Below, piece after piece: positions 1 through 8,475 of a stretch of 8,475 nucleotides of DNA. Numbering within the stretch: the first letter of the stretch is position 1; each line of letters begins with the position of its first letter. The position numbers and the translations under genes were made by a program. Under the pieces are notes generated by a model, which saw nothing but the letters and a program-made list of their open reading frames with translations, had not been told where the DNA came from and did not search any database. The stretch is from a virus (taxonomy: Duplodnaviria; Heunggongvirae; Uroviricota; Caudoviricetes), in the IMG/VR virus record IMGVR_UViG_2648501235_000008; one strand, written 5' to 3'.

Positions 1-112
1 AGTCGCTGTCGTTCTCAAAATCGGTGGAGCTGCATGACAAAGTCATCGGGCATTATCTGAACATAAAACACTATCAATAAGTTGGAGTCATTACCCAAAA
101 CTTAAAAATGGA

Positions 113-1444
113 ATGCAGAAATACATTGATATTTCTCTTTGTTTGAATTTGGCTTTGTTAGATTTAAATGTCATTTTAGGTGATAAAGAGCCACAAAATA
201 GAGCTTTGGAAGGTTTGAAATCTTTAATTAAACAGTCCGATGGAATGTCTGTTCTAATTGAAAGATTTAGAAGCAGTAATTTGATTCGTCATAATCTAGT
301 GTCTTGGCCTTTAGCTAACTATACTAAATATAAAGGAGATCTTACTGAGGAGAATTTATACAGTAAGATGCATGGTATTCCACTTGATAATGATAAATTA
401 AATAAAACCCCTAGATATATTCATGCTGATGAAAAGCAGCTTTTCGATTTGATTGATGCTCTTCATACAAGAAAACTACATAAGTTTACGCATGAAAATA
501 AGCATCACTTAAAAAATTGCTCTGTTACTAAGATAAAAGATAATAAAGCTCTTGAAATAAAGGTAGGAATTGATGATAGAAGTGGTAATGACACAATAAA
601 AGTTGCGTTGGCAAATATGAGAGTTGAACGTCGTAATATTGAAAGTGCTTGCAGAAAAGATCAGTCTCCAAATTTAAGTTATGAACGACAAAGAAACCTT
701 TATCGTATTCTCAACTCGGCAACTGAAGAAAATGTGCAGATATTACTACTCCCTGAGTTATCAATTCCTGTGTCGTGGTTACCTTTTATGGCAGCACATT
801 CAAGGAGAAAACAAATATCTTTGATTTTCGGATTAGAGCATTGGGTTATTAACGAACGCGCATATAATATTTTGGTTGAAATGCTGCCTTATACTTCAAA
901 CTTTAAACACAAATCCAGTATGTTAGTTTTTCGAGTGAAAAATCATTACGCACCTAGTGAGATTACGATGCTGAATTCTTTAAGGTTAAAAATATCCTCT
1001 CCTAAACCTAGTAAACAACGGTATCATTTGATTAAGTGGAAAAACGTATCATTTTCTACATACAACTGTTTTGAACTGGCTAATATCGAGCATAGAGCAT
1101 TATTTCGTTCGCAGTTGGATATTTTATTTGCTTGCGTATGGAATCAAGATATAAATTATTATCAACATATCACTGAGTCAGCGACACGGGATTTACATTG
1201 TTATGTGGCTCAATCAAATACTTCGCATTATGGCGGTTCTTGTGTTCTACAACCGACCAGTAGCACTATTTCAAATAAGATATATGTAAAAGGTGGGGAA
1301 AACCATTGCATCCTAACTACTACTTTAAATATATATGCATTGAGAGAGGCTCAATATCGTTCATTCAGAATTAACTCCGATACTATTAAACACAATCCTC
1401 CAGGGTTTGACTATAATGCTCTATTAGAGCGAGGTGAGAAATGA
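113..1444 (+). CDS. Hypothetical 443-aa protein: unassigned N-terminal region (about aa 1-190) plus C-terminal carbon-nitrogen hydrolase (nitrilase-superfamily)-like domain; candidate defense effector
   Basis: Long ORF in the only AT-rich stretch of the window. Manual motif reading: hydrophobic strand then LLLPE (E215, nt 755-757); ISLIFG strand; FRVKNHYAPSE (K276 nt 938-940, E283 nt 959-961); FSTYNCFE (C319 nt 1067-1069); DILFACVWN; YVAQSN...GGSCVLQP. Order and spacing fit the nitrilase-superfamily E-K-E-C tetrad. No convincing SD before ATG 113, so the start is uncertain. Stop overlaps the next start (ATGA at 1441-1444). Confidence 0.7.
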   Translation: MQKYIDISLCLNLALLDLNVILGDKEPQNRALEGLKSLIKQSDGMSVLIERFRSSNLIRHNLVSWPLANYTKYKGDLTEENLYSKMHGIPLDNDKLNKTPRYIHADEKQLFDLIDALHTRKLHKFTHENKHHLKNCSVTKIKDNKALEIKVGIDDRSGNDTIKVALANMRVERRNIESACRKDQSPNLSYERQRNLYRILNSATEENVQILLLPELSIPVSWLPFMAAHSRRKQISLIFGLEHWVINERAYNILVEMLPYTSNFKHKSSMLVFRVKNHYAPSEITMLNSLRLKISSPKPSKQRYHLIKWKNVSFSTYNCFELANIEHRALFRSQLDILFACVWNQDINYYQHITESATRDLHCYVAQSNTSHYGGSCVLQPTSSTISNKIYVKGGENHCILTTTLNIYALREAQYRSFRINSDTIKHNPPGFDYNALLERGEK

Positions 1445-2130
1445 GTAGCTTTTGGGAAGGTATTTTGTCATCAAGCATTTCATTTGCAATTATTGGATTT
1501 GTTTGTAAGGCTTTTTTACAACATATTGATAAAAGAGAGTTAGAATCATTTAAAAATAAGTTGAAATATGAAAGTGAACAGAGAATTAAAGAGGATGAAC
1601 GTGCTTATAATTTTAAAAAAGCAAGAGATCTTGAAATCGGACGTTGGGGGTTAACATTACTTAGTGCTGCAAATGGTTTTTTAGGAAGGCTATGTTATAT
1701 TAAAGATCACAATGACCTATCGTCGGATCAATATTATATTGATAGTACAAGATTCTATCTATGCCAATATTTTTGCTGGGTACATCAATTCAGGAAAAAT
1801 AGAGATTCATCTGTATTTTCACCAACTAATGATGAAATGTTAATAACTGAATTAATCAAAAATATTTCTATAGCCCTACGAGAGAACGATATTGGTTTTC
1901 CTTGTATTAGATCTCTTGAACAAAAGTATATAGGTGAAAGCCTTAGCATTGGTGCTGAATGTATGTCCTATAAAGATTTTATCGATTCTAAAGTATTAGA
2001 AAACTATGCACCTCTAAATGATTTTGTTGAAGCAATTCTACAAAATAATAATAAAGATTATATCGATAAACTCGTTATCCCATTCCAAGATCTCAAGACC
2101 AGATTTGATGCGGCATTACAAAATAAATGA
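1441..2130 (+). CDS. Hypothetical 229-aa protein with N-terminal hydrophobic membrane-anchor-like segment; operon partner of the upstream gene
   Basis: ATG at 1441 overlaps the upstream TGA (ATGA). Good SD GAGG at 1431-1434, 6 nt before the ATG. Residues about 6-27 (WEGILSSSISFAIIGFVCKAFL) are hydrophobic, followed by a charged, probably helical region. Same AT-rich composition as the upstream gene. No recognisable catalytic motif. Confidence 0.65.
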   Translation: MSSFWEGILSSSISFAIIGFVCKAFLQHIDKRELESFKNKLKYESEQRIKEDERAYNFKKARDLEIGRWGLTLLSAANGFLGRLCYIKDHNDLSSDQYYIDSTRFYLCQYFCWVHQFRKNRDSSVFSPTNDEMLITELIKNISIALRENDIGFPCIRSLEQKYIGESLSIGAECMSYKDFIDSKVLENYAPLNDFVEAILQNNNKDYIDKLVIPFQDLKTRFDAALQNK

Positions 2131-2148
2131 TTTTTTTACCTGCGCGCA

Positions 2149-2167
2149 ATGCTCTCCCCGCCTCGCC
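2149..2167. other. cos cohesive-end core of P2/P4 type
   Basis: Minus strand of 2149-2167 reads GGCGAGGCGGGGAGAGCAT, 17 of 19 identical to the P2/P4 cohesive end GGCGAGGCGGGGAAAGCAC as I recall it. It sits just beyond the psu stop, where P4 carries cos. Confidence 0.55.
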
Positions 2168-2190
2168 CGCCCGCTTTGCGGGGCGGTTTT
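2165..2190 (+). terminator. GC-rich bulged hairpin followed by TTTT, terminator-like, overlapping the cos region
   Basis: gcccgcccgc-ttt-gcggggcgg then tttt (2187-2190), 35 nt after the ORF2 stop. The stem has one bulge. It may instead be part of the cos recognition region. Confidence 0.3.
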
Positions 2191-2212
2191 AATGCAGTTG
2201 CACTGACACGCT

Positions 2213-2240
2213 CAGACCGCGCCGGGAATGGCGCGGTCTG
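2213..2240. repeat. Perfect 11-bp inverted repeat with 6-nt loop
   Basis: cagaccgcgcc (2213-2223), loop gggaat, ggcgcggtctg (2230-2240). No flanking T-tract on either strand. Possibly a cos-flanking terminase recognition element or an RNA stability hairpin. Confidence 0.5.
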
Positions 2241-2270
2241 CAGAAAATGAGGCAGGGAAACGCATGCAAA

Positions 2271-2301
2271 GCCATGCACCTTATCGATGCATGGCTTTTT
2301 T
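2271..2301 (+). terminator. Rho-independent terminator between the convergent cargo operon and psu
   Basis: Stem gccatgca (2271-2278), 9-nt loop, tgcatggc (2288-2295), then TTTTTT (2296-2301). An A-run upstream (2268-2270) gives partial bidirectional character. Confidence 0.5.
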
Positions 2302-2331
2302 CAGTAAAAACAGGCGGATTTTCGGGGAATT

Positions 2332-2904
2332 TTACACAGACTGACGTGATGCCAGTTGCGCACTTTTACGCGAAAAAATCATGTTCTGCGCAGGGGTGAA
2401 TTTTTCACGGCTGTCATCCACCGAAGCCGCGTCAGGCCTGAATCCGATGGTCGTTAAAATGTCGCTATCCTGTGCGGAATAATTAATTTTTTCACCCTTC
2501 GCAAGCCAGGACAGGAGGGCTTCACGCAGGGCATCTGTGGCACGCTGTATGGCACAGTTTCGGGCAATGGCCGTCAGCTCACTGTAGCCCATCAGCTCCG
2601 GTGCCAGTGCCGCCGCCAGTGCTGTGCCGTGCTGCTGCATAAAATCATTCAGCCGGTCGCGGATGCTGATGTGCTGAACGGCTTCATGCGAACGAATATA
2701 ACGACCGGCAGCCTGATTCACCTGCCATTTTCTGACTTCGATAATATTGCGTAATTCGTCCAGGCGACTGACGTTTCTTCCTTCCCCTGACAGAAGCCGC
2801 AGATATTCCTGTTCGGCCGCAGCCAGCTCATTTTTGCGTTGCAGCCATGCTGCTTTGTTATTCTGACAGGTGTCAAAGGCCTGCTGTAAGGCTGTGCTTT
2901 CCAT
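2332..2904 (-). CDS. psu: Psu, polarity suppression / capsid decoration protein of P4-like satellite
   Basis: 190-aa ORF, the length of P4 Psu. N-terminus MESTALQQAFDTCQNNKAAWLQRKNELAAAEQEYL matches Psu as I recall it. Last gene of a sid-delta-psu arrangement. Confidence 0.9.
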   Translation of the reverse strand: MESTALQQAFDTCQNNKAAWLQRKNELAAAEQEYLRLLSGEGRNVSRLDELRNIIEVRKWQVNQAAGRYIRSHEAVQHISIRDRLNDFMQQHGTALAAALAPELMGYSELTAIARNCAIQRATDALREALLSWLAKGEKINYSAQDSDILTTIGFRPDAASVDDSREKFTPAQNMIFSRKSAQLASRQSV

Positions 2905-2977
2905 CGTTATCTCTTTCTCATCATGCTGAAGAATAAAAATACGGTGTGCGGCGACGGCCGGTGTTAACCGGCAGCCC

Positions 2978-3478
2978 TCATTCCAGACGCAGCGAATATG
3001 ATTGTGTTTTTAAGCGTACTGGCGGCAGTTCCTGTTTTTCATGCAGGCTTTCTGCCAGTTCGTCCGGCGTGACCGGGCGGACAATAAAACGGTTGATGGT
3101 CTGAAGCGTTTTAAACACCAGACCACATCCCGGATCCGTGCACACATAAAAACGCTCGGTGACTTCCTGAGACAGACGCCGCGATGTTCTTGACAGTGCA
3201 AGGCCTTTACATCTCCGACAACAATATCCGGTAACAAGCATTCTTTTCGGGCGTTTCATACTGCCGGAGGCTGACGTCAGTGAATCGCGGTATCTCTGTT
3301 TGCCTGAAATGTATTCCATTCCTGAATCTTTACTGTCAGAGAAAAAGCTTTCACTCGCTTCAAATGTCGCAGAGCAATAAATATTCCGGCACTGTGCAAT
3401 CATTATCTTGGTGCCATCGTCCATGAAATGTGCGCGGCGGGTGTGAGCAACATGTCCACACGACGGGCAGTAAATCAT
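2978..3478 (-). CDS. delta: Delta, late-gene transcriptional activator with tandem Ogr-type zinc-finger repeats
   Basis: 166 aa with two Cys-rich Ogr-like repeats (CPSCG...C...YC and CCRRC...C...GC). Start overlaps the sid stop (ATGA at 3475-3478). Confidence 0.9.
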   Translation of the reverse strand: MIYCPSCGHVAHTRRAHFMDDGTKIMIAQCRNIYCSATFEASESFFSDSKDSGMEYISGKQRYRDSLTSASGSMKRPKRMLVTGYCCRRCKGLALSRTSRRLSQEVTERFYVCTDPGCGLVFKTLQTINRFIVRPVTPDELAESLHEKQELPPVRLKTQSYSLRLE

Positions 3479-4209
3479 GACAGCAGTCCTCTGGCCTTAA
3501 GCACTGCTCCCTGCTGGTCTATTTTGTCCTGCCACACCTTGCGCTGTGCCGGTGTGCCTGCCACCTCATAATCCATGTGAGGAAGTGTTGCCGCTGACAG
3601 TCCGGTCAGCCGGAGAACCGGCTCGCCGGTGAGGCTGATTTGCATCTGTTTAATTTTCTGTTCCAGCGATGATTTCACCTGCTGCATGACAGCCTTTTCC
3701 GGTGCGACGTAGCCCTGATGGCCGGTGGTGTTGGCGAGCGGATTTTCCTGTACCAGAATGCTCAGATGCATTGCCCGGACAAGCGCCTCACAGGTTTCAT
3801 TCAGGGCGTGTTCCAGCTCATGCTCTGCATACAGACTCAGAAGGTGATGATGTGCCTTCCGGTAGGCGGTGGCCGTGCTGTCACACGCCCCTTTCAGGCG
3901 TTCACGTTCGAAATTCAGCACCACGGCCAGATTGTCATATTCCTGTACCAGCTCCCGGCGTGCCACGCGCTCAATGTGGCGCTGTTTCAGCTCGTCGCTC
4001 AGGACACCACCGGCTGCACGAAAGGCCGTGCGCCAGTCGTCAGCGTCGTTTCCGTCGGCCTGCGCCAGCGCATTTTTTTCCTGCTCTGCCCGTTCAATGG
4101 CCGTGACGGTCTCATCCATCAGTCGGGCGTTCTCAAGGTGGGCGGCTCTGGCCTTTTCCAGTTGTGCCAGTGCGGGTTGCAGATATTCAGGGATGGTGTT
4201 GTCAGACAT
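3475..4209 (-). CDS. sid: Sid, external capsid size-determination scaffold protein
   Basis: The track ORF runs to 4275, but the internal ATG at 4207-4209 has a strong SD (GAGGAG, complement of 4217-4222, 7-nt spacing) and gives 244 aa beginning MSDNTIPEYLQPALAQL. Helical, Q/E/A/L-rich. Position upstream of delta fits P4. Confidence 0.85.
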   Translation of the reverse strand: MSDNTIPEYLQPALAQLEKARAAHLENARLMDETVTAIERAEQEKNALAQADGNDADDWRTAFRAAGGVLSDELKQRHIERVARRELVQEYDNLAVVLNFERERLKGACDSTATAYRKAHHHLLSLYAEHELEHALNETCEALVRAMHLSILVQENPLANTTGHQGYVAPEKAVMQQVKSSLEQKIKQMQISLTGEPVLRLTGLSAATLPHMDYEVAGTPAQRKVWQDKIDQQGAVLKARGLLS

Positions 4210-4243
4210 TTTCCGGCTCCTCGTCACTTCAGGTTGAGAAAAT

Positions 4244-4299
4244 TGTGACGTACACCGGACAACAACACGACGCATTGCAGATGTGCCAGCCCTGACACA
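4244..4299. promoter_or_regulatory. Divergent late-promoter region with two TGT-N12-ACA dyads (Ogr/Delta-type activator sites)
   Basis: TGT-gacgtacaccgg-ACA at 4244-4261 (right half extends to ACAACAACA) and TGTG-ccagccctga-CACA at 4282-4299. They lie 35-90 bp upstream of the sid start on the minus strand. Confidence 0.45.
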
Positions 4300-4379
4300 G
4301 GAGACTCATCCTCACACCGGCAAGCCAGGAAAAGGTCGCTGGAAAAAACGGCTTACTGTTTATTTTTTTTATATTTTAC

Positions 4380-4483
4380 TGTTCACCTCTGTTCACCATA
4401 AGAAAAAAGATAAGTAATACAGTAAGTTAAAGGGTGAACAATCGCAGTAATGACTGTTCACCGTCTGTTCACCACTGTTCACC
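4380..4483. repeat. TGTTCACC octamer iteron cluster, P4 ori-type (alpha-protein binding sites)
   Basis: Direct TGTTCACC at 4380-4387, 4390-4397, 4455-4462, 4466-4473 and 4476-4483; inverted copy GGTGAACA at 4433-4440. An AT-rich tract (about 4355-4378) is adjacent. The octamer matches the P4 ori/crr type I iteron as I recall it. Confidence 0.6.
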
Positions 4484-4587
4484 CGTTGATGGGCTTTTTG
4501 TGCTGTTTATTACTGTTTGTTTTTATTAATTCGCCGGGAATGAATAAGAAAAAACGATTTGTATTTCACTATAAAAATTACGAATTG

Positions 4588-4617
4588 CTTTAAGTGGCTT
4601 TAAATGACTTTAAGTGG
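4588..4617 (+). repeat. Three tandem 10-bp repeats upstream of vis
   Basis: CTTTAAGTGG (4588-4597), CTTTAAATGA (4598-4607), CTTTAAGTGG (4608-4617). Candidate regulator binding array; function not determinable from sequence. Confidence 0.5.
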
Positions 4618-4762
4618 AGATGAACAAAAAATACACAAGCATTGTAAGGCTGCCGGAACAAATCCCCCCTGTTGCGTCTGCTGAAAATATTCACAAAATA
4701 AAGCGCTACCCGAAGCCGGACGGACTTATCCGGTGCTGTATGGACATTAACGAGGTAGCCCG

Positions 4763-5029
4763 ATGCAAGCTGTTTTTTCTTCCCCGTCTCCCGCCCCTGT
4801 GACGCCACTGATGCCGCTGCCGGACATCACACAGGAGCGTTTTTTACGTCTTCCGGAAGTGATGCACCTGTGCGGCCTGTCACGCTCGACCATCTATGAA
4901 CTCATCCGTAAGGGGGAATTTCCGCCGCAGGTGAGTCTTGGCGGTAAAAATGTGGCCTGGCTGCACTCTGAAGTCACCGCATGGATGGCCGGGCGCATTG
5001 CCGGACGCAAACGGGGGTACGACGCATGA
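4763..5029 (+). CDS. vis: Vis / AlpA-family helix-turn-helix DNA-binding regulator
   Basis: 88 aa, the length of P4 Vis (orf88). Core [30 protein letters not shown] is a typical AlpA-family HTH. SD GAGG at 4751-4754, 7 nt before the ATG. Confidence 0.85.
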
Positions 5030-5625
5030 TGATGCCCGCTCTGCAAAAACTCCCTTTTTCTGGCTTGCCTTTTTCCGGCATTTGCGGATATAGTTTTTCC
5101 GCTGTCGCAAAATCGGCAGCCGGGCGTGGAAACCCGAGCAATCTAACGGCGACATATGACGCGCCATGCGTCTTTTTTTGTGTCGCAATCAACGCCACAG
5201 AGCGCCAGATTATGGTGTGGTGTGTGGTCAGTCGAGCAGATGGCACTCCGTGCATCCTGCCCGCGTCCGCTCATTATGCCGCAGAGTCAATGGTAGCTCA
5301 GGCGGGGCAGCCTCCGGGCTGGCCGGTATCCGTTAGAGCCGGTATTTCCACCCCCGTCTGGGCTATCGCCATCGAGCGTGGAAACTCCGGCGATAGCGTA
5401 ACCTGCTATCTAACGGAGGCTGCCATCATGGCTACAACCCTTACCCCTTCACACCCTGAATTTGTCTTTGTGTTTGCGGCTGTCCGTCGCGCAGACCGTC
5501 ATCCCCGTATCTGCATGCTTCGCACCGTCGCCGGTGATGAACGCAGTGCCCGCCGTTCCCTTGTCCGTGACTATGTGCTCTCCCTTGCTGCCCGTCTGCC
5601 GGTGGTGGAGGTGTCCCGTGCGTAA
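5026..5625 (+). CDS. 199-codon ORF spanning the immunity region (P4 orf199-like); translation uncertain
   Basis: ATGATGATG at 5026-5034 overlaps the vis stop (ATGA). The length equals P4 orf199 from memory. Composition is weakly protein-like and the frame covers the seqA/B/C-like RNA elements, so it may not be translated as a whole. Confidence 0.3.
5065..5094 (+). promoter_or_regulatory. Candidate sigma70 promoter, PLE-like
   Basis: TTGCCT (5065-5070), 18-nt spacer, TATAGT (5089-5094). Lies just downstream of vis and upstream of the seqA-like element. Confidence 0.3.
5124..5416 (+). ncRNA. Immunity-type region with seqA / seqB / seqC-like elements; candidate cI-type regulatory RNA locus
   Basis: Direct copies of GCGTGGAAAC (5124-5133, 5376-5385) and ATCTAACGG (5141-5149, 5408-5416). 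Between them, 5330-5353 (ccgttagagccggtatttccaccc) is the inverted complement of both blocks (CCGTTAGA / TTTCCAC). A 9-bp hairpin (5362-5370 / 5389-5397) encloses the second GCGTGGAAAC. Precise RNA ends cannot be set from sequence. Confidence 0.4.
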
Positions 5626-5905
5626 TAAAAAAGCCCCTCAGACCGTCTCAGCGCGTCATGACGCCCGTGAACACCTCAGCATTGAGGCTTACCATAAGCT
5701 CAACCGCGCCAGCGCCGTATCCCAGTTTGTTGGGGGTGATTTGATTCACCGTGAACTCTCCGGCCTGCATCAGCTCTACATTCCGCATATTTTCAGCTAC
5801 CTGAATGAAGATATTGATTTTGTGCTGAATGAGCTGAAAGCCAAAGGCCTGTGCCGCGATTTTCTCGCCCAGCAGAAAGACCGGGGAGACAGGACGCATG
5901 TTTGA
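5618..5905 (+). CDS. 95-aa protein in the position of P4 epsilon (derepression protein); identity not established
   Basis: GTG start at 5618 with SD GGAGG (5607-5611, 6-nt spacing). The 52 codons upstream in the track ORF (from 5462) are not protein-like and overlap the preceding ORF. The 3' end overlaps the next start. Confidence 0.45.
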
Positions 5906-6353
5906 TTTTCCCCAGCCCGGTGAGATTTACCGTTCTGCCGGTTTTCCCGATGTGGCCGTGGTCGGCATTCTGGAAGACGGTATTCCGTGGGAAATGCCGT
6001 ACCGCTGTCCGGACATTGTCTGGAACCCGTACCGCCGAAAATTCAGTATCCTTGTGCGTATCCTCACTGACGGGCGCACCACAGACATCCCGCTGGGGCG
6101 TTTTCTGCGGGAATTTACCTGTGACCGTCCTGACCTGTTCAAACGCAGCCCCGTAAACCGGCATGCGGTACTGAAAGAAATGGCCGGAGACCCGGAATTA
6201 CAGAAATGGCGGGAGAAATATCTGGATATTTACCCGCAGGACACTGTTCCGGCCAGCCGGGCGGCACCGGTGGCGCGGGAATGGCGGGAAATTCCCCGCA
6301 CGGAGCCTGACCCGGAAATCACCCCGGATAACAGTTACCGCAATTATCTGTAA
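5898..6353 (+). CDS. 151-aa protein, P4 orf151-like
   Basis: Length equals P4 orf151 from memory. Protein-like composition, same strand and operon as alpha. Start overlaps the upstream stop. Confidence 0.6.
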   Translation: MFDFPQPGEIYRSAGFPDVAVVGILEDGIPWEMPYRCPDIVWNPYRRKFSILVRILTDGRTTDIPLGRFLREFTCDRPDLFKRSPVNRHAVLKEMAGDPELQKWREKYLDIYPQDTVPASRAAPVAREWREIPRTEPDPEITPDNSYRNYL

Positions 6354-6488
6354 TTAAAAAACGACACCCGAAAAATTAAATGTGCGTATTCGCGCAGGGA
6401 TACGCACGTCTTCAGGAGACGCAGATATGCCTTATCAGTTAATGCAACCGGCACGGAATGCAGTCATCTGTCACAGGGAGGAAAACAA

Positions 6489-6809
6489 ATGAAAACACCC
6501 TTACCGCCCGTCTTACGCGCTGCCCTTTACCGTCGCGCTGTCGCCTGTGCCTGGCTGACCGTGTGCGAACGTCAGCACCGCTACCCGCATCTCACCCTTG
6601 AATCACTGGAGGCGGCCATCGCCGCTGAGCTGGAGGGCTTTTATCTGCGCCAGCACGGTGAGGAAAAAGGGCGTCAGATAGCCTGTGCCCTGCTGGAAGA
6701 TTTAATGGAATCCGGCCCCCTGAAGGCCGCGCCGTCGCTGTCCTTTCTCGGGCTGGTTGTGATGGATGAACTCTGTGCCCGTCACATAAAAGCGCCGGTA
6801 CTGCACTGA
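6489..6809 (+). CDS. 106-aa hypothetical protein immediately upstream of alpha
   Basis: Strong SD GGGAGG (6475-6480, 7-nt spacing). Stop lies 14 nt before the alpha start. Confidence 0.55.
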
Positions 6810-6823
6810 AGGAGAACAACACC

Positions 6824-8379
6824 ATGAAAATGAACGTAACCGCCACCGTCAGCCATGCGCTCGGCCACTGGCCGCGTATTCTCCCGGCGCTGGGGATTCA
6901 GGTGCTGAAGAACCGTCATCAGCCCTGTCCGGTCTGTGGCGGGAGTGACCGTTTCCGTTTTGATGACAGGGAGGGGCGCGGCACCTGGTACTGCAATCAG
7001 TGTGGTGCCGGTGACGGCCTGAAACTGGTTGAAAAGGTGTTTGGTGTTTCCCCGTCCGATGCGGCCGCAAAGGTGGCTGCCGTGACCGGCAGCCTGCCCC
7101 CTGCTGACCCGGCAGTGACGGCTGCCGCCGGTGCTGAAACAGACGCTGCCCGGAAGAACGCCGCCGCACTGGCACAAACCCTGATGGCGAAAACCCGTCC
7201 CGGAACCGGTAACGCCTACCTGACCCGCAAGGGCTTTCCCGGCCGGGAATGCCGGATGCTGACCGGCACACACAGAGCCGGTGGCGTGAGCTGGCGTGCC
7301 GGTGACCTTGTGGTGCCACTGTATGACGACAGCGGCGAACTGGTTAACCTTCAGTTAATCAGTGCTGACGGCCGTAAGCGCACCCTGAAAGGCGGACAGG
7401 TCAGGGGCACCTGTCACACCCTTGAAGGACAGAATCAGGCCGGAAAACGTCTGTGGATAGCGGAGGGATACGCGACCGCACTTACCGTGCATCACCTGAC
7501 CGGTGAAACGGTGATGGTGGCGCTTTCTTCCGTGAATCTCCTTTCTCTGGCCAGCCTTGCCCGGCAGAAGCATCCGGCCTGTCAGATTGTCCTTGCTGCT
7601 GACCGTGACCTCAGCGGTGACGGCCAGAAAAAAGCCGCCGCAGCCGCAGGTGCGTGTGAAGGTGTTGTTGCCCTGCCGCCGGTCTTCGGTGACTGGAATG
7701 ATGCCTTCACGCAGTACGGCGGGGAAGCCACCCGTAAGGCCATTTATGATGCCATCCGGCCACCGGCTGAAAGCCCGTTCGACACCATGAGCGAAGCGGA
7801 GTTTTCCGCCATGAGTACCAGCGAAAAGGCCATGCGTATCTATGAGCATTACGGCGAGGCGCTCGCGGTCGATGCCAACGGCCAGCTTCTGTCCCGCTAT
7901 GAAAATGGTGTCTGGAAGGTGCTGCCGCCACAGGACTTTGCCCGGGATGTGGCCGGGCTGTTTCAGCGGCTGCGCGCGCCGTTCTCCTCCGGGAAGGTGG
8001 CCTCCGTGGTGGACACCCTGAAGCTGATTATTCCGCAGCAGGAAGCCCCCTCCCGCCGCCTGATTGGCTTTCGTAACGGCGTGCTCGACACGCAGAACGG
8101 CACGTTCCACCCGCACAGTCCGTCACACTGGATGCGCACCCTGTGCGATGTGGATTTCACCCCGCCGGTGGACGGTGAAACGCTGGAGACCCACGCCCCC
8201 GCGTTCTGGCGCTGGCTTGACCGTGCCGCCGGTGGCCGTGCGGAAAAACGCGACGTGATTCTGGCCGCACTGTTTATGGTGCTGGCAAACCGCTACGACT
8301 GGCAGCTCTTTCTGGAGGTGACCGGTCCCGGCGGCAGCGGCAAAAGTATCATGGCCGAAATCGCCACCCTGCTGGCCGG
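6824..8379 (+). CDS. alpha: Alpha primase-helicase (zinc-ribbon, TOPRIM primase, D5-like helicase with Walker A); 3' part absent or interrupted
   Basis: SD GGAG at 6811-6814. N-terminal zinc motif CPVCGGSDRF...WYCNQCG; TOPRIM-like LWIAEGYATALTV and VLAADRD; Walker A GPGGSGKS at 8327-8346. The frame stays open to 8475, but the expected helicase-like character is lost after 8379. Not in the ORF track because no stop occurs in the window. Confidence 0.85.
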
Positions 8380-8475
8380 CTGTCTCTTATACACAAATCC
8401 CCACCCGGGGATTTGTGATGTCTGTCAGTCTGCTTTAGGGGGACTCTTTCCATCCGGTAGTTTCCTTCCTCCCCG
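8380..8475. mobile_element. Putative terminus of an IS4-family (IS50-like) insertion sequence
   Basis: CTGTCTCTTATACACA at 8380-8395 is identical to the first 16 nt of the Tn5 mosaic end and 15 of 16 to the IS50 outside end, from memory. It is followed by a perfect palindrome cacaaatcccc-acc-ggggatttgtg. The junction coincides with the loss of alpha coding character. Confidence 0.35.

Follow-up and report, generated by a model that had tools for sequence, protein, structure and literature searches.

A cluster of six copies of the octamer TGTTCACC, five direct and one inverted, occupies a 104-bp stretch of the 8475-bp DNA segment analyzed here in full (hereafter, the window). We consider it very likely that the whole of the evidence is best explained by the replication origin ori1 of phage P4 residing in a P4-like prophage, with the DNA of the origin intact, the alpha gene split, and the origin most likely silent. 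Judged by sequence identity, the six repeats are those of P4 ori1, a known site with an existing GenBank annotation, and the importance of this assignment beyond correct annotation is small. The window can be viewed as a snapshot of decay: in this P4-type satellite prophage, the origin has stayed intact, and both the initiator gene and the defense cargo are broken. The coordinates of the features are collected in Table 1.

Table 1. Features of the window, with positions counted from its first base (strand: +, - or, for features without orientation, a point)
Feature	Position	Strand	Remarks
cos	2149-2167	.	
psu	2332-2904	-	
delta	2978-3478	-	
sid	3475-4209	-	
Two TGT-N12-ACA dyads upstream of sid	4244-4261, 4282-4299	-	putative delta/Ogr activator sites of leftward Psid
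AT-rich tract	4357-4379	.	91% A+T; borders iteron 1 on its upstream side
Type I iteron 1, TGTTCACC	4380-4387	+	exact search; corresponds to X51522 9406-9413, 'ori type 1 repeat'
Type I iteron 2, TGTTCACC	4390-4397	+	exact search; corresponds to X51522 9396-9403
AT-rich spacer	4398-4432	.	35 bp, 80% A+T; separates iteron 2 from iteron 3
Type I iteron 3, inverted TGTTCACC	4433-4440	-	exact search; P4 alignment
Type I iteron 4, TGTTCACC	4455-4462	+	exact search; P4 alignment
Type I iteron 5, TGTTCACC	4466-4473	+	exact search; P4 alignment
Type I iteron 6, TGTTCACC	4476-4483	+	exact search; P4 alignment
Three tandem 10-bp 'ori type 2' repeats, CTTTAAGTGG / CTTTAAATGA / CTTTAAGTGG (+ strand reading)	4588-4617	-	X51522 9176-9205
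TGT-N12-ACA dyad upstream of vis	4643-4660	+	putative activator site of rightward PLL
vis/ORF88 homologue	4763-5029	+	AlpA-type HTH
PLE -10 hexamer	5089-5094	+	
Immunity RNA, Rfam isrK	5101-5178	+	72.5 bits
Immunity RNA, Rfam C4 antisense RNA	5286-5373	+	76.2 bits
ORF151	5898-6353	+	
cnr (P4 ORF106)	6489-6809	+	intact, 106 aa; full-length DUF5375 match
alpha, first 518 codons	6824-8379	+	frame then broken by insertion sequence
Left terminus of ISEc13-like IS4-family element, CTGTCTCTTATACACA...	8380-8475	+	interrupts alpha

An exact search of the window returned the six copies of the octamer, all of them within positions 4380-4483, and no copy elsewhere. The array is composed of two direct copies, an AT-rich spacer, one inverted copy and three direct copies, with a spacing near the helical repeat, and iterons 3 and 4 pair up as a 30-bp imperfect inverted repeat. 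A first-pass annotation of this DNA, made from the letters of the sequence, had reported the same six copies, and the search reproduced their number, orientations and coordinates exactly; the adjoining AT-rich tract that it described is also present, both upstream of iteron 1 and in the spacer (the A+T content of the whole window is 50%). The spacer between iterons 2 and 3 is presumably the DNA-unwinding region, a role that we assign from the P4 ori1 literature. An AT-rich region of approximately 35 bp was reportedly described for P4 ori1 by Tocchetti et al. 1999.

Using blastn against phage records, we found that window positions 4200-4700 match phage P4 (X51522 / NC_001609) over their full length with 96.6% identity. 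The matched stretch of P4 is X51522 9093-9591, and the features annotated under the match are an 'origin of DNA replication', six copies of an 'ori type 1 repeat' and three copies of an 'ori type 2 repeat'. According to the feature table, the P4 type 1 repeats are 8-mers located at X51522 9310-9413 in the pattern ++-+++, and a search of the P4 segment with TGTTCACC returned exactly the six annotated type 1 sites. The alignment of the origin was constructed three-way, from the window, P4 and an intact Escherichia coli relative (NZ_AP027217). In this alignment, the six iterons, their orientations and all spacings are unchanged compared to P4, and there is no indel in positions 4380-4483. The spacer between iterons 2 and 3 contains two substitutions compared to P4; both are also found in the intact E. 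coli relative, which marks them as natural polymorphisms. In the AT-rich tract, 15 bp upstream of iteron 1, the window has a G-to-A change and an additional T (at approximately 4365), and the ori type 2 repeats are identical to those of P4. Thus, the likeness to P4 ori1 (X51522 9310-9413, within rep_origin 9086-9809) extends to the order, orientation and spacing of the iterons, the 35-bp length of the AT-rich spacer, the three type II 10-mers and the neighbors, i.e., sid on one side and ORF88/vis on the other, as in the P4 gene order. The differences are the two spacer substitutions, the G-to-A change with the extra T, and the cognate alpha gene, which in the window is split by an insertion sequence.

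The first-pass annotation had identified the octamer as the type I iteron of P4 ori and crr, and this identification proved accurate, for X51522 annotates the repeats of both sites as such; the comparison with P4 ori1 that it proposed yields the same six octamers, with the same consensus, in the 96.6% identical segment. Its statement that the origin appears intact stands for the sequence (six iterons and spacings unchanged compared to P4) and does not carry over to function: the origin is intact as far as sequence and spacing are concerned, which does not imply the ability to fire.

The similarity to P4 extends far beyond the origin. Positions 2168-8379 of the window are colinear with P4 11624-5414, with 98.0% identity and one gap, in a blast comparison for which only unambiguously assigned rows were used (window 2168-8379 to locus 1-6211), and the gene order is that of P4, psu-delta-sid-ori-vis-...-cnr-alpha. 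The homology to P4 begins at position 2168, immediately to the right of cos. Compared to the reverse complement of the P4 left end, GTGCTTTCCCCGCCTCGCC, the cos sequence itself, ATGCTCTCCCCGCCTCGCC (2149-2167), has two changed bases. The isrK and C4 RNAs, which follow the PLE promoter, constitute the P4 immunity region; between them, window positions 5186-5288 are unaligned to NZ_AP027217, the closest E. coli relative, which has only 58 bp there, and P4 is colinear with the window across this stretch. The gene cnr encodes the protein that regulates the copy number of the oriI replicon.

The alpha gene is the point at which this similarity breaks off. The alpha fragment of the window is 99% identical to residues 1-518 of P4 alpha and contains the zinc ribbon, the Toprim primase, the D5_N domain and the Walker A motif GPGGSGKS. 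The homology to all P4-type alphas ends at position 8379, and from position 8380 onward the sequence (CTGTCTCTTATACACAAATCC...) matches ISEc13-family IS4-like elements at their left terminus; such elements are found in several genomes, with left flanks that are all different. The ISEc13-like element is thus inserted after alpha codon 518, just past the Walker A motif, and the interruption of alpha downstream of the origin, which the first-pass annotation had noticed, is borne out by the end of the P4 homology and the IS4-family terminus that follows it. Residues 671-770 are the sole part of P4 alpha with a solved structure (PDB 1KA8), which is reportedly the structure described by Yeo et al. 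2002. As the alpha frame of the window ends at codon 518 and the origin-binding domain is located at residues 671-770, this domain is not encoded in frame. The paper on the origin-binding domain of P4 alpha is Yeo et al. 2002. A 3' portion of alpha may be present on the far side of the insertion sequence, but it would not be joined in frame. When the window was examined for the components of a functional oriI replicon, cnr was found to be present, and a full-length alpha in cis was not.

The other end of the window is damaged as well. The terminus of an IS1 element was observed in bases 1-94; this element cuts a UG5-nitrilase-type (DRT class 1) defense reverse transcriptase, located at 113-1444. 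The truncated reverse transcriptase keeps only profile positions 516-958 of 958 and is followed by an intact 229-aa 'RTasTM' partner at 1441-2130. The reverse transcriptase/RTasTM pair occupies the P4 accessory-gene position beside cos and replaces P4 gop/beta/cII. Neither the IS1 junction nor the ISEc13 junction is present in the complete E. coli genomes searched. The window is a P4-type prophage that is undergoing break-up by insertion sequences.

P4 alpha is an origin binder, a helicase and a primase in one polypeptide, and its C-terminal winged-helix domain binds the type I iterons of ori1 and of crr, the site with which ori1 is paired in the oriI replicon. Replication of P4 is of the bidirectional theta type and is independent of the host DnaA, DnaB and DnaG proteins; P4 ori1 requires each of the six iterons as well as their relative spacing. 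The Cnr protein binds alpha and limits the copy number. This mechanism is said to go back to Flensburg & Calendar 1987, Ziegelin et al. 1993 and 1997, Tocchetti et al. 1999 and Yeo et al. 2002. In an intact element, alpha would occupy the six phased iterons and crr, open the adjacent AT-rich DNA, load itself as a helicase and then prime bidirectional theta replication, whereas Cnr would restrain alpha and thus control the copy number. In the window, with the alpha gene located 2.4 kb downstream and split after codon 518, the origin-binding domain is no longer made in frame. The ori1 copy of the window would still be expected to bind alpha. Because alpha is split and its origin-binding domain is not in frame, the origin is most likely silent, unless another P4-type element supplies alpha in trans. 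It is conceivable that the orphan ori1 fires in situ and amplifies the neighboring chromosome, or that it titrates alpha against an incoming satellite, the alpha protein being derived from a co-resident or superinfecting P4-type satellite. We regard this as unlikely; if true, such activity in trans could explain the perfect iterons at a time when the flanking genes take hits from insertion sequences.

It should be noted that the P4-type origin resembles the iteron origins of theta plasmids and phage-inducible chromosomal islands in its phased short direct repeats, in the initiator encoded by the element itself and in the adjacent AT-rich unwinding region. Unlike those origins, it is bipartite (ori1 and crr), and in the P4 initiator, which is not a protein of the Rep/pi/RepA type, a primase and a superfamily-3 helicase are fused and the C-terminus is a winged helix. 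The independence of DnaA also sets the P4 origin apart from the iteron-type origins of plasmids and islands.

The same octamer is found in P4 at a second site. The P4 crr is annotated at X51522 4291-4590, directly 3' of alpha, and contains ten repeats of the type I octamer. The octamer of the window cluster and its feature name are identical to those of crr; however, crr consists of two 120-bp direct repeats located 3' of alpha, with five iterons of mixed orientation in each, whereas the cluster in the window is arranged like ori1 and is located 2.4 kb 5' of alpha. In NZ_AP027217, the intact E. coli relative, both the ori cluster and a second cluster of TGTTCACC are present, the latter at +2385 to +2641 from the start of alpha. 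The window ends at position 8475 inside the insertion sequence, short of crr and of the remaining 3' part of alpha.

A search with the alpha fragment gave 77 loci from other species, and the upstream layout was judged in the 52 P4-like loci, from other genera of enterobacteria, that had at least 2.7 kb of upstream flank. For each locus, the layout was read from the best upstream cluster of near-matches to the octamer. Most of the 52 loci repeat the ori layout upstream of alpha, at alpha identities of 63-84%: one or two direct iterons, 43 bp, one inverted iteron, 21-22 bp, and three direct iterons 10-11 bp apart. The iteron consensus across these relatives is T[G/C/A]TTCAC[C/T], with variation mainly at positions 2 and 8. 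The spacing is kept while the flanking sequence diverges, as is expected of a protein-binding array that depends on the helical phase. The ori1 iteron layout is thus kept down to approximately 64% alpha identity, and it could aid automated annotation of origins in P4-like satellites.

The surroundings of the iterons raise the question of transcription. The TGT-N12-ACA dyad is the pattern of the activator site of P2/P4 late promoters, and the putative assignment of dyads to promoters in Table 1 follows from this consensus. If an activator site is centred at -55, Psid would start near position 4235 and run leftward, with its second dyad at approximately -18. The spacing between PLL and PLE is about 400 nt. 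Given the dyad at 4643-4660 placed at -55 and the fit to this spacing, PLL would start near 4706 and run rightward, approximately 395 nt upstream of PLE. The iterons are, then, probably flanked by the late promoters Psid and PLL, which diverge from one another, with approximately 470 bp between the two starts. The first-pass annotation had placed them between the late promoters and vis, which is correct in outline and imprecise in detail, since the dyads assigned to Psid would lie to the left of the iterons and the dyad assigned to PLL to the right. A PLL start at approximately 4351, derived from the '5' untranslated region' of X02534, would make that wording literally true; this candidate was dropped, as the 4643-4660 dyad and the PLE spacing favor a start at approximately 4706.

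A location within the ~470-bp interval predicted between the two promoter starts is what one would expect if the repeats were mainly transcriptional operators of Psid and PLL and not an origin. We consider this very improbable, because the octamers recur in the cluster 3' of alpha, far from both promoters, Psid and PLL have activator-type TGT-N12-ACA dyads of their own outside the iteron cluster, and the P4 record labels the sites as origin repeats. Binding of alpha at the iterons may have a secondary regulatory effect. The inverted pair at 4433-4462 could be read in transcriptional terms as well, i.e., as an intrinsic terminator or RNA hairpin for leftward transcription, in which case the other copies would be incidental. 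Indeed, a consensus scan yields a terminator-like stem of 11 pairs on the minus strand (4462..4433), but one such site was found compared to 1.3 expected from shuffles, the tail CTTTAACTTA is a poor U-run, and the arms of the stem are two iterons. In addition, iterons and helical phasing are both kept at the level of DNA in the relatives, including the four copies outside the hairpin. A terminator at iterons 3 and 4 is thus highly improbable, and we rejected it as no better than chance and as having a poor T-run.

The remaining reading, that of a chance cluster or a low-complexity repeat without function, has a practically negligible probability. In 200 dinucleotide-preserving shuffles, the octamer occurred with a mean of 0.23 copies and a maximum of 2, so that none reached six, and a Poisson estimate for at least six copies of TGTTCACC in 104 bp is approximately 1.5e-17 per window. 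Unrelated chromosomal DNA of E. coli, of which 110 kb were covered, contains five copies (0.045 per kb), the nearest pair being 623 bp apart; thus, the octamer is not frequent genome-wide, a possibility that the first-pass annotation had raised against its own reading. Conservation of the architecture across genera also speaks against chance.

Two further observations were made in the relatives. In a group of loci of the Pantoea/Erwinia type (L049-L076), with alpha 63-68% identical, the iterons on the ori side are mostly TCTTCACC, mixed with TGTTCACC. They are located at approximately -1950 to -1660 from the start of alpha, with the spacing unchanged, and the mixture of the two octamers implies that iteron position 2 varies between lineages. 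In many relatives outside E. coli, a lone inverted TGTTCACC was observed inside the alpha coding sequence, at a fixed position of +1766 or +1769 from the start of alpha. This internal copy is absent from P4, and its position is past the end of the alpha fragment of the window; it could be a codon-constrained coincidence or an internal binding site.
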